A DNA stretch of 63,975 bases, counting the filler, from Acidimicrobiia bacterium (lineage in GTDB: Bacteria > Actinomycetota > Acidimicrobiia > Spongiisociales > CAZKJJ01): the NCBI GenBank assembly GCA_046759765.1. It is 3 parts of 3 records of this genome, joined end to end, with 100 filler letters (N's around TTAATTAATTAA, not from the genome) between each part and the next. Parts side by side here need not be neighbours in the genome. Positions count along the whole stretch, not along the records: positions 45,511 to 63,975 come from JBHICV010000034.1; 2 more parts are not named here. One strand, 5' to 3'. This document shows, one piece after another, positions 16,799 to 47,196 of this stretch. A program made the position numbers and the translations under genes. The first letter of the stretch is position 1. The number at the start of each line of letters is the position of its first letter. Below the pieces are notes generated by a model. The model did no database searches. It worked only from the letters and a program-made list of their open reading frames with translations, and was not told where the DNA came from.

Positions 16799-17230
16799 AT
16801 GTTCCTCGGAGAGCATCAACATACGCTCGATGAGAAGGGCCGAATCGTGCTGCCCGCCAAGCACCGTCAGGGGCTCGCCGACGGTCTGGTCCTCACCAAA
16901 GGCCAAGACAGATGCCTCTACGTCTTTCCGATCGAGCGGTGGAACGAAGAGGTGAGCCGAGTGAACGCACTTCCCCGCACCGACCGTCGCGCACGGAACT
17001 TCGCCCGCGCCTTCTTCGCGGGTGCCGACCGCCAGAACCTCGATAGTCAGGGCCGCATCACCGTTCCTCCGCACCTCCGCGACTACGCAGGACTGGGGCG
17101 CGAGGTCAAGGTGCTGGGTGGAGGTGATCGAGTGGAGCTCTGGGACGTTGGGACTTGGGAGACAGTCCAGCCCGAGGCAGACGAGTACTACGCAGGGATT
17201 GAGGAGGCGCTCAGCGACCACGGCATTTGA
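16799..17230 (+). CDS. mraZ: Division/cell wall cluster repressor MraZ
   Basis: MFLGEHQHTLDEKGRIVLP and DSQGRITVP repeats. Confidence 0.96.
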   Translation: MFLGEHQHTLDEKGRIVLPAKHRQGLADGLVLTKGQDRCLYVFPIERWNEEVSRVNALPRTDRRARNFARAFFAGADRQNLDSQGRITVPPHLRDYAGLGREVKVLGGGDRVELWDVGTWETVQPEADEYYAGIEEALSDHGI

Positions 17231-17262
17231 CAGACAAGCCATATCCCCGCGTCTGGCCTATA

Positions 17263-17339
17263 GCCAGCCCCCGGGTACCAAGTGGAAGGCCCCTTACTCC
17301 GCCCGCTTCCTCTTTGGTGTCAGCGCCCCGGGGGCTGGC
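17263..17339 (+). other. Long intergenic hairpin between mraZ and rsmH (possible mraW-type RNA motif)
   Basis: Perfect 13-bp stem GCCAGCCCCCGGG/CCCGGGGGCTGGC with inner ACCAA/TTGGT and GGAAG/CTTCC pairing. Confidence 0.6.
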
Positions 17340-17340
17340 C

Positions 17341-18273
17341 ATGGGCCAGGCGACGACAGAGCCCCGCTTTCACGTACCGGTGATGACAACTGAGGTGGTG
17401 GAGCTGTTCAGACCCATCTCTCGAGGAGTGATAGTCGACATGACGTACGGAGGAGGCGGACACAGCGCAGAGCTGCTCCGGGAGTTAGAAGACGCGGTGA
17501 GGATCCTGGCCATAGATCGAGATCCGGCCGCCGTTGCCCAGGCCCGTGAGGGAGCTCGGCTTCGGGCTGTGCAGGCGAACTACCGAGAGCTGGAGGAGAC
17601 CTTGGCGCGGGAAGGGATCACGGCGACTCAGGGAGTCTTCTTCGATCTCGGCGTCTCCGCATTCCAGCTGACCTCTGCGGAGCGGGGTTTCTCCTTCCGG
17701 AAGAAGGGCCCACTGGATATGCGGATGGGACCCGACGCGCCGCACACCGCCGACGAGCTCGTCAACGAATGGCCGCAGGATCGACTGGCCGAGATCATTT
17801 TCCGCTACGGCGAGGAGCGATACTCACGTCGGATCGCCCGTGCCATCCTCGCTGCCCGACCGATTACAGACACTCTGGAGCTGGCGGAGGTCATACGCTC
17901 CGCGGTCCCGCCGGGCGCCCGAGGTTCGCCTCAACATCCCGCGCGCCGGACATTTCAAGCAATCCGCATCGCCGTCAACGACGAGCTGCAGGCACTGAAG
18001 CTCGGGCTTGAGGCCGCGATCGCAAGCCTGGAGGTTGGTGGGAGATGCGTCGTCATCTCCTATCACTCCGGGGAGGATCGGCTCACAAAGCAAAGATTCG
18101 CCACCGGCGCGGCCGGATGCGTCTGCCCACCGGAACTGCCCGTGTGCACCTGCGGCAAGAGCATCGAGCTCATACTGCTGACGAGGAAGCCGCTCCGGCC
18201 ATCGCCGTCGGAGGTCACCGCCAATCCGCGGGCCAGGAGCGCCCGCTTACGGGCCGTCGAGAAGGCCGCATGA
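17341..18273 (+). CDS. rsmH: 16S rRNA m4C1402 methyltransferase
   Basis: HVPVM, DMTYGGGGHS, DLGVSAFQL, HPARRTFQAIRIAVNDEL and NPRARSARLR motifs. Confidence 0.96.
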   Translation: MGQATTEPRFHVPVMTTEVVELFRPISRGVIVDMTYGGGGHSAELLRELEDAVRILAIDRDPAAVAQAREGARLRAVQANYRELEETLAREGITATQGVFFDLGVSAFQLTSAERGFSFRKKGPLDMRMGPDAPHTADELVNEWPQDRLAEIIFRYGEERYSRRIARAILAARPITDTLELAEVIRSAVPPGARGSPQHPARRTFQAIRIAVNDELQALKLGLEAAIASLEVGGRCVVISYHSGEDRLTKQRFATGAAGCVCPPELPVCTCGKSIELILLTRKPLRPSPSEVTANPRARSARLRAVEKAA

Positions 18274-22792: not shown

Positions 22793-22892
22793 NNNNNNNN
22801 NNNNNNNNNNNNNNNNNNNNNNNNNNNNNNNNNNNNTTAATTAATTAANNNNNNNNNNNNNNNNNNNNNNNNNNNNNNNNNNNNNNNNNNNN
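22793..22892. other. Artificial contig-joining spacer
   Basis: Ns flanking TTAATTAATTAA; the genes on both sides are cut. Confidence 0.97.
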
Positions 22893-45410: not shown

Positions 45411-45510
45411 NNNNNNNNNNNNNNNNNNNNNNNNNNNNNNNNNNNNNNNNNNNNTTAATTAATTAANNNNNNNNNNNNNNNNNNNNNNNNNNNNNNNNNN
45501 NNNNNNNNNN
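45411..45510. other. Artificial contig-joining spacer
   Basis: Ns flanking TTAATTAATTAA. Confidence 0.97.
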
Positions 45511-45757: not shown

Positions 45758-46492
45758 TTGTTTCGCAAGGTAACTGTGCTGACGTTGGCGGCCGCCGTGA
45801 CGATTGTCGCGGCGGCACCGCCGGTCAGTGCAGCCGCCGAGGAATCCGGCTTCGTGAGCCGGATCAATTCAGCCCGAGCCGGTGCGGGTCTGAATCCGCT
45901 CGACGTCTATTGGGATCTGACCGACGACGCACGTGTCCATACCGCCGAGATGGTCGAGGCCGGCGAGATCTTTCATAGCTCGAACCTGGGGAGCGTCACG
46001 TCTGGATGGTTTGCACTCGGCGAAAACGTCGGAGTGGGCGGTGACGTAGCCGGTCTGCACGAAGCTTTTATGTCATCGTCCGGGCACCGAGCGAACATCC
46101 TCGGTGACTACAACTACGTCGGGGTTGGCACCGCCTTCTCATCTGACTCTTATCTCTACGTCACGGTGATCTTCATGAAGGGTCCGGACGGGTTGGTGTC
46201 CGCGTCTGGGGACGGACAGGACCCGCCTGAAGAGGAATCCCCGGCGCCACCAGCTCCCGCGCCGACAGAAGCGACCGCGCCGACCGAAGAGACGGCCGTG
46301 CCGATTGAGAGCAATCCCGAGCCGTCCGGGAGCCCGGTCCCGGCCGCGCAGGCCCCTCCGGCCCCTGCGCCGAAGCCGAACCCGTCCGAACCGGAGCCGA
46401 CTCCGAGGGGAGGCGACGTGCAGCTCATCCTCGACCTGGTGTCAGCAGGGCACTGGCCGTTGGTTCTCCCCAACGGCCTGACCTTGGTCTGA
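45758..46492 (+). CDS. Secreted CAP-domain protein with Pro-rich tail
   Basis: Signal peptide; INSARAGAGL, GENVG, FMSSSGHRANIL and YNYVGVG motifs. Confidence 0.9.
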   Translation: MFRKVTVLTLAAAVTIVAAAPPVSAAAEESGFVSRINSARAGAGLNPLDVYWDLTDDARVHTAEMVEAGEIFHSSNLGSVTSGWFALGENVGVGGDVAGLHEAFMSSSGHRANILGDYNYVGVGTAFSSDSYLYVTVIFMKGPDGLVSASGDGQDPPEEESPAPPAPAPTEATAPTEETAVPIESNPEPSGSPVPAAQAPPAPAPKPNPSEPEPTPRGGDVQLILDLVSAGHWPLVLPNGLTLV

Positions 46493-46501
46493 GCCTCAAA
46501 C

Positions 46502-46583
46502 ACAAGACCCAAGGAACCTCTGCTATCGCCCCCCGCACTTCCCCGAACAGGGTTCGAACTGCTTCAGCACCTTGGGTCTTGCA
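46502..46583 (-). ncRNA. Candidate ~80-nt small RNA
   Basis: Own sigmaA-type promoter, 13-bp closing stem GCAAGACCCAAGG/CCUUGGGUCUUGU, no credible ORF. Confidence 0.5.
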
Positions 46584-46589
46584 GGGGCG

Positions 46590-46618
46590 ACAGTACGAGT
46601 TAAGCCCCCCATCGTCAA
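46590..46618 (-). promoter_or_regulatory. SigmaA-type promoter of the candidate sRNA
   Basis: TTGACG-N17-TACTGT on the minus strand. Confidence 0.65.
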
Positions 46619-46710
46619 CCCGCGCGATAACGTCGGATTTCGCGACTTTCGGCAACGTAACTGACCATAGCCGACCTCAATTCTTGCTAAACGTTGCCCA
46701 GATCTGAGCA

Positions 46711-46766
46711 CTTTCCACATTTCCACAGCATTCCACAGGCGGTTGTGCACAAGCGGCTGTAGACAA
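46711..46766. repeat. Cluster of DnaA-box-like TCCACA elements
   Basis: CTTTCCACA, ATTTCCACA, CATTCCACA, TTGTGCACA and inverted TTGTCTACA within 56 nt. Confidence 0.5.
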
Positions 46767-46770
46767 CTCG

Positions 46771-47196
46771 TCATGCCTTTTTTTCGCGACTCCGGAGCAA
46801 CGGACGGAAGGTGATCTCCACCAGCTCGTAGATCTCACCGAGCGCGCTTTCGAGCTCGTGTTCTGAGACCAATTCCAGCGCGAGGCGACCTCTCAGAAAC
46901 AGATCGCTGTCGTCGGACAGCGTGAAATGAACTCGCCATGCCTTTTCGTTCCGTCGCAGGCAGAGCCGGTAGACCTGCTCCAGATTCGACACGGGCGCAG
47001 GAAGGATGTACGCCTCGTACCGGAGACTGCGGTCTCCGACCTCCAGCCAGACGGTCGTGAAGTCCCTTGTCGTTTGCCGAATTCTGAGGGCCCACCGCGA
47101 GCCGTCCTGCTCGCAGTAGGTAACGTCGGAGGTTTCCTCCGATACCCACCTTTCGGCCAGCTGACCGATCCAGCGGAGCGTCGCTTCTTTATCCAA
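46771..47196 (-). CDS. YbjN-family (T3SS-chaperone-like) protein
   Basis: TTVWLEVGDRSLRYEAYILPAP..N.EQVYRLCLRRN pattern. Confidence 0.82.
   Translation of the reverse strand: MDKEATLRWIGQLAERWVSEETSDVTYCEQDGSRWALRIRQTTRDFTTVWLEVGDRSLRYEAYILPAPVSNLEQVYRLCLRRNEKAWRVHFTLSDDSDLFLRGRLALELVSEHELESALGEIYELVEITFRPLLRSREKKA

Follow-up and report, generated by a model that had tools for sequence, protein, structure and literature searches.

Structured RNAs that are conserved throughout a phylum are rare, and the function of some of the known ones is still unsettled. Among those relevant here, 6S RNA is a rod of 160-200 nt with a central bubble, Ms1 is about 230-300 nt long, and 6C is an actinobacterial small RNA that is thought to act through exposed loops. 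Three others are known to us from the accessible parts of published reports. The RNA scr0792 of Streptomyces coelicolor is intergenic, about 85 nt long and bound to RNA polymerase, according to the accessible text of its report (PMC11077062). The raiA motif RNA is described, in the sections of its report that are open, as an orphan structured RNA of about 200 nt, multistem with pseudoknots, which is located at raiA/comFC and whose carriers include Acidimicrobiia and Coriobacteriia (PMC10861870). The mraW motif (RF01746; Weinberg et al. 2010) is presented in the available excerpts as an unbranched Actinomycetota hairpin of about 100 nt with a fixed terminal loop of seven nt (PMC2864571), given as CUUCCCC (PMC4607514; PMC2864571, both in excerpt). 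It lies between mraZ and mraW and is presumed to be a leader. Here we describe what is very probably the gene of a further, undescribed hairpin RNA of about 81 bases, with a promoter of its own and conserved in many uncultured actinobacteria.

The window, by which we mean the whole 63,975-nt stretch of DNA analyzed, joins three contigs of one Acidimicrobiia genome (the query genome, G000, 92% complete) with N spacers at 22793-22892 and 45411-45510. The RNA gene is single copy in this genome and lies about 1 kb into the third contig (C34). A -35 hexamer, TTGACG (46613..46618, minus), is separated by 17 nt from a -10 hexamer, TACTGT (46590..46595, minus), exactly where the first-pass annotation of this DNA had placed them. 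The TTG of the former and the T, A and last T of the latter (TAnnnT) are invariant in 30/30 aligned loci, and the consensus promoter of the gene across relatives is TTGAC-N17-TAnnnT. It is adjacent to the RNA in 44/57 homologues and in 63/77 named loci; in the remaining loci it is mostly further upstream, ahead of an extra 5' domain. A generic promoter scan of the locus gave no sites, so that the RNA promoter was not among its output; support for the promoter thus comes from its conservation and not from the generic scan. The RNA would start 7-8 nt past the -10 hexamer and is predicted to be an unbranched rod of about 81 nt (46502..46582, minus), on the basis of its fold, covariation and the counts of G-U against A-C given below. 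As had also been claimed, no protein gene follows the promoter: the minus strand has no ORF before the end, at 46492, of a convergent CAP-domain gene (45758..46492, plus; Pfam PF00188), whose neighborhood with the RNA is not conserved. The upstream neighbor is a YbjN-domain gene (46771..47196, minus; Pfam PF10722). Elsewhere in the genome, GGGGAAGTGCGG has its sole other exact copy in an intergenic region downstream of a TTGACA (L261:2109-2121; G000:C97:8609).

The minus-strand unit folds with -45.6 kcal/mol (z -4.65), and 0/200 shuffles are equally stable. The closing stem proposed earlier is confirmed as a helix of 13 bp, P1, formed by a 5' strand (46570..46582, minus), which shows compensatory changes, and a 3' strand (46502..46514, minus), which covaries with it; one of its pairs, for example, is AU in 27/57 and GC in 25/57 homologues. 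P1 is irregular: it contains a purine-rich internal loop and a U-U mismatch, along with G-U and C-G pairs that do not vary. RNAalifold found two-sided changes in 9/16 pairs of the closing helix. The apical helix and its loop, P4 (46531..46552, minus; 46552-46547 paired with 46536-46531), have pairs changed on both sides in 4/6 cases among the 57 homologues and in 5/6 in a broader 68-locus set. Over the whole 22-pair rod, 93.3% of cells are paired in the 57 homologues and 15 pairs are changed on both sides; none of 500 shuffles matches this, and slid controls are 31-63% paired. Two-sided changes rise to 20/22 pairs in the 68-locus set, which was chosen for bearing the loop; both alignments were fitted to the model. 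G-U outnumbers A-C on the minus strand by 209 cells to 18, which assigns the RNA to the minus strand. The fold of the 81-nt form has no central bubble, and a U-rich terminator tail is uncommon, with at least four U within the next 7 nt in 16/68 loci.

At the tip of the rod is the heptamer GGGGAAG (46538..46544, minus), a proposed seed, which is present in 55/57 homologues. Six of its seven bases are predicted to be unpaired in the query genome, and opening the loop would cost 1.8 kcal/mol. Around this fixed heptamer, the flanking bases and the helices vary and covary. The G-rich tract reported in the first-pass annotation is thus present, but the invariant loop inside it had gone unnoticed. 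The homologue search and covariation analysis that had been proposed as a check support an unbranched rod tipped by an invariant GGGGAAG loop.

Two other features read from the single sequence fared differently. UUCGAAC (46552..46558, minus) looks like a T-loop, and GGGGCGAUAG (46532-46523) is complementary to CTGTCGCCCC (46593-46584), in the -10/discriminator, both on the minus strand. Together they had been taken to indicate a tRNA-like T-arm and an RNA that pairs with its own -10/discriminator, either as a pseudoknot or as an R-loop at the promoter. In the query genome alone the complementarity covers 11 nt and is borderline (shuffle p 0.025 and 0.008). It reaches p<0.05 in 0/57 homologues, in a scan whose interval clipped the query by one base (9 nt, p 0.2), and the 5' partner strand is upstream of the predicted RNA start. 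The T-loop is not a conserved feature either: GUUCGA is found in 2/57 homologues, in T-loop position only in the query (1/57), and forcing a T-arm fold costs 14.6 kcal/mol. We put both the UUCGAAC stretch and the match to the -10 region down to local chance, reject the pseudoknot, and regard the reading built on them as scarcely credible.

Relatives of the query genome carry the RNA in 38/40 cases, 30 of them detected by BLAST and 8 of the 10 BLAST misses by R1 and R2, covariance models made from the BLAST loci; the two relatives without a match are assemblies of 89% and 72% completeness. R1 matches 67/151 genomes of the class, including 39/39 of the same order, in one of which (G097) R2 confirmed the RNA at a different, syntenic place. 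R2 matches 40/151 genomes sampled from the phylum, some with two or three copies, and several families in this sample have no match. A later model, R3, added three clear new carriers from 40 earlier negatives. An exact-pattern search found at least 119 records; the 80 listed among these are mostly titled Acidimicrobiia or Actinomycetota, and three have other taxon labels. The tallies include genomes marked unpublished (G015, G172, G216, G254), one of which (G015) is a row of the first alignment; the conclusions are independent of them. A mobile element or repeat was considered and rejected, as the gene is single copy, one exact pattern had 0 matches in viral contigs, and none were seen in plasmids.

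Comparison with known families gave no assignment. Rfam 15, a check also suggested beforehand, has 0 matches in the window at the gathering threshold; on the element itself the sole match is a miRNA hairpin, which reaches 20.2 bits where the cut-off is 100, and on the element in sets of 12, 19, 1 and 20 homologous loci it reports nothing. ARAGORN found 0 tRNA/tmRNA genes in the window, and a tRNA-like Y RNA was rejected as well, since a T-loop is in position in 1/57 homologues. Model searches uphold the earlier statement that the RNA is not SRP, 6S, Ms1, 6C or tRNA. The SRP gene (RF00169) of the genome is on another contig (71.5 bits), and 6S RNA (RF00013) has no match in the query genome at its 92% completeness. 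Ms1 (RF02566) scores at best 9.7 bits, elsewhere in the genome, and in five genomes it has no match over the cut-off and none at the family loci. 6C (RF01066) does not match at the locus and has no match over the cut-off in the genome. A sponge of the CsrB/Rsm type was rejected in view of the distribution of CsrA, present in 3/41 genomes and not in the query genome. In the literature searched, with few subscription papers within reach, no description of a GGGGAAG-loop RNA was found. The RNA is thus near-universal in one Acidimicrobiia order, present in other deep Actinomycetota lineages and absent from Rfam. The comparative evidence leaves us with little doubt that the RNA gene is real. The first-pass annotation proposed a small RNA, not previously described, under a promoter of its own; conservation and the lack of a family match support this proposal, and transcription of the RNA is what we infer from them.

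Upstream of the RNA, a ybjN or an MshA-like GT4 gene is found on the same strand within about 1.5 kb in 64/89 loci (94 loci, of which 5 were too short); the best family of the GT4 genes is TIGR03449, with scores below its cut-off. Downstream genes vary in kind. They also vary in orientation, with 45 of 80 on the same strand, 28 on the opposite strand, 1 unclear and 6 loci too short, as expected for an RNA that acts in trans. A riboswitch, a T-box-like leader or another cis-leader was rejected because there is no fixed same-strand downstream gene, and in the query genome the gene is convergent. The stem could instead be no free RNA at all, and serve as a terminator, stabilizer or processing stem of its neighbors, or as a DNA hairpin of the DnaA-box locus described below. 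It ends only 10 nt from the CAP stop codon in the query genome, and in long paralogues only a U-rich tail comes after it. These observations are countered by the conserved promoter directly in front, by the 209 to 18 asymmetry on the minus strand together with the invariant loop, and by the plus strand, which is without a U tract and folds much more weakly (-28.9 kcal/mol for the same unit). A role solely as terminator of the CAP gene fits neither this strand asymmetry nor the presence of CAP downstream in only 9/30 genomes, and the DNA-hairpin variant is countered by the persistence of the RNA in the 24/77 loci that have no DnaA-like box. We consider it distinctly improbable that the stem is not part of a free RNA.

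The second conserved block found by BLAST holds a cluster of DnaA-box-like 9-mers (46711..46766), which lies upstream of the -35 hexamer at a distance of 93-148 nt. Three boxes point in one direction, one is palindromic and one is inverted. We take them to be putative DnaA boxes from the DnaA-box consensus and from their likeness to the dnaA promoter of the query genome, whose boxes are of the same variant, are arranged alike and include one that is identical. Three or more boxes are upstream of the RNA in 44/77 named loci, as against 0/143 control windows, and the cluster is the densest of the five that a loose pattern found genome-wide. It is not oriC, because in four genomes assembled as single contigs a distance of about 120-630 kb separates it from dnaA. 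The minus strand has two copies of the sequence CGCGAAA(A), one ahead of the box cluster (46781-46788) and one ahead of the promoter (46638-46644), and many relatives have it at the same two places; it may be a protein-binding site. A second DnaA-box-like cluster (L262:2050-2150; G000:C80:6550-6650) is upstream of a SigA/SigB-like sigma gene other than the one discussed next, and in some relatives a single box is ahead of the promoter of the orthologue of the latter.

A heptamer that stays exposed and unchanged while the scaffold around it varies looks like a seed. Our best reading, to which we give somewhat less than an even chance, is therefore a trans-acting regulator that base-pairs through its loop. 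Around the computed features (conservation, strand, structure, promoter, loop and boxes), transcription, base pairing, target and DnaA control can be arranged as follows. A primary-type sigma promoter would give rise to a stable rod RNA of about 81 nt, whose long helices would protect it and present the single-stranded GGGGAAG loop. The loop would nucleate pairing with C-rich CUUCCCC elements of other RNAs, after which P4 would open and the duplex extend. Binding over a short leader would block translation initiation, the candidate target being the leader of a gene for a 313-aa SigB-like sigma factor. In many Acidimicrobiia, the DnaA-box cluster may tie the level of the RNA to the replication state. 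The RNA is a small and sharp test object, with one invariant 7-nt loop, one candidate target and one candidate regulator.

The candidate target gene (G000:C171:3593-4534, minus) is SigA/SigB-like and below all specific cut-offs shown. When the apical 19 nt were compared with the 2604 start regions of the query genome predicted by our own gene model, its leader ranked first. The predicted duplex has -36.9 kcal/mol, pairs 18/19 nt and ends 5 nt before the AUG; net of opening both RNAs, about -11.8 kcal/mol remain. The best match of a shuffled query was as strong in 3/53 shuffles. The seed is upstream of 4/24 sigma orthologues in three families (as the complete heptamer in three of them and as six bases in the fourth), against a background of 19/2798 genes; it is just upstream of the start in two other families, and the 6-mer is in the sister genome. 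Six further loci in this search are paralogues, outside the 24. The seed is missing in 20/24 orthologues, of which four or five look leaderless by eye, and it was not found in 3/3 metagenome orthologues, from a scan that returned mostly unrelated sigma factors and of which 4/80 loci were used. CUUCCCC near gene starts is not enriched relative to its own permutations (19 against 4-22). The rank of the sigma-gene leader is marginal, and as a predicted target it is suggestive only. Within one family, the orthologues at L389, L390, L391 and L393 look leaderless, with a conserved -10-like hexamer about 7 nt before the ATG (by eye). Another candidate, the mraZ coding region, has a perfect 12-nt complement (window 16967-16978) and was rejected as a chance match because the seed is present in only 3/30 orthologues.

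A purine-rich loop that is invariant over the phylum is also what a universal partner would require. The loop might pair with a tRNA anticodon loop or with 16S rRNA, at its pyrimidine-rich 3' end, and the RNA would then be a ribosome or tRNA sponge. GGGGAAG resembles a Shine-Dalgarno sequence, an imperfect one in view of the two invariant A residues. The 3' end of 16S rRNA was not found in the query assembly. We see only a slender chance for such a sponge.

The main rival to the loop-seeded regulator is the binding of a protein, possibly RNA polymerase, because the closing stem, unlike the loop, recurs in longer paralogues. In other lineages the rod terminates longer units, in which a closed 5' domain, about 20-390 nt long, stands between the promoter and the rod; in the long paralogues the U-rich tail follows directly on the rod. 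The 5' domains are themselves closed by a similar stem. Some paralogues keep the closing stem and the purine-rich internal loop and have other apical loops; some long 5' domains have a GGGGAAG loop of their own. None of the long paralogues matched Rfam. The RNA points to a wider family, to which such long paralogues belong. In three genomes (L068:1300-1581, L072:1300-1601 and L246; G174, G308 and G267), a multi-branched 5' domain of about 200 nt with near-identical internal motifs and no Rfam match precedes the rod. Five further loci (L222, L249, L250, L253 and L257; G185, G188, G296, G280 and G199) are promoter-led RNA candidates of 320-470 nt, which end in the family closing-stem hairpin and a U tract and have no Rfam match; in several of them, hairpins with a GCAA tetraloop are repeated, with GGAA on their flanks.

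The RNA would, on this alternative, be a decoy or scaffold, e.g., a minimal RNA-polymerase-associated RNA like 6S, Ms1 or scr0792, and the irregular closing helix and the loop would be protein contacts. Retention of the closing-stem motif in paralogues with different loops, and the similar stem that closes their 5' domains, speak for it, as do the failure to find a 6S or Ms1 gene in the 92% complete query genome and the precedent of an RNA-polymerase-bound RNA of about 85 nt in Streptomyces, in the accessible text of PMC11077062. The 81-nt form, on the other hand, has no central bubble, and one carrier of the family (G187) has a true, separate 6S gene (73.9 bits, over the cut-off); weaker 6S matches are at other loci in G233 and G174. 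The two scr0792 probe sequences in that text have no loop or stem motif in common with the RNA by eye (PMC11077062). CsrA, a known binder of GGA loops, is as sparse as stated above (3/41 genomes). On this evidence we consider protein binding less likely than not, though the strongest of the alternatives.

The loop-seeded regulator also has a bearing on the mraW motif, whose CUUCCCC loop, a conserved element of this phylum described independently, is exactly complementary to GGGGAAG and speaks in favor of such a regulator. By eye, the apex of the latter, in the excerpt available, is the reverse complement of the apex of the RNA over up to 12 nt (PMC2864571). RF01746 has no match in the query genome; it is over the cut-off in 7/151 genomes, none of which is among the 40 carriers of the RNA. 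Searched with R2, the antisense strand of the mraW motif gave the two top scores among 19 loci, which are weak (18.4 and 17.0 bits, E 0.02 and 0.04) and largely driven by the loop. Shared ancestry is thus possible. R3 found no homologue below E 0.4 in six genomes with the mraW motif, a pattern search in 13 such genomes gave counts like the control, with 0/30 folded loci resembling the RNA gene, and four ybjN loci of mraW-motif genomes are without the loop. MTS1635 is not the mraW element, according to a table in the accessible part of PMC3207917. G246, which carries the GGGGAAG RNA, also has two near-identical long CUUCCCC-loop hairpins away from mraW (L310 and L320).

Between mraZ and rsmH (mraW), the window contains a rod hairpin (17256-17345, plus) that is highly conserved and has a C-rich loop at its apex. 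The stem at its base extends over the ribosome-binding region as far as the rsmH start codon. The hairpin was found by script in 25/28 order-level loci, in most of the others by eye, and in 6/6 other Acidimicrobiia; it was not seen in the non-Acidimicrobiia carriers of the RNA (29 genomes examined overall). Its C-rich loop is different from CUUCCCC and it has no RF01746 match. It is probably a counterpart of the mraW motif in position, and one not described before. Pairing with the RNA is predicted at -22 kcal/mol, in the top 3.7% of 5000 random tiles, in a register that is common but broken in several genomes. As an obligatory partner the hairpin was rejected, because the pairing is moderate and because some lineages that have the RNA are without the hairpin.

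A wider proposal, which we put forward as an unlikely one, is that Actinomycetota ancestrally had two RNA partners that recognize each other through loop-loop pairing, a GGGGAAG-loop RNA under the control of DnaA and hairpins with a CUUCCCC loop, the latter half being known from the orphan mraW motif in the division operon, and that the RNA is the minimal member of a modular family of 80-470 nt built on one closing-stem motif. If true, the GGGGAAG/CUUCCCC pair would couple replication status to division and to sigma-factor expression. In a variant of this proposal, the mraW motif would be an inverted descendant of the RNA gene.

Among the described systems, 6S and Ms1 are likewise promoter-driven, mostly double-stranded and closed by a stem of their 5' and 3' ends, and the long paralogues are of similar length; the RNA differs in being 81 nt long, in having no central bubble and in matching neither model. 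6C has two C-rich loops, whereas the GGGGAAG RNA has a single G-rich one. The RNA resembles scr0792, as far as the accessible text describes the latter, in length and in being intergenic and actinobacterial (PMC11077062). The raiA motif is likewise an orphan in Acidimicrobiia and is unlike the RNA in size, folds and locus, in the portions of the report that are open (PMC10861870); it has no Rfam match at the RNA. With respect to the mraW motif, the RNA is a free-standing, promoter-led gene near mshA/ybjN with the opposite loop polarity, and for the CUUCCCC loop of that motif, so far unexplained, it offers a lead that can be tested.
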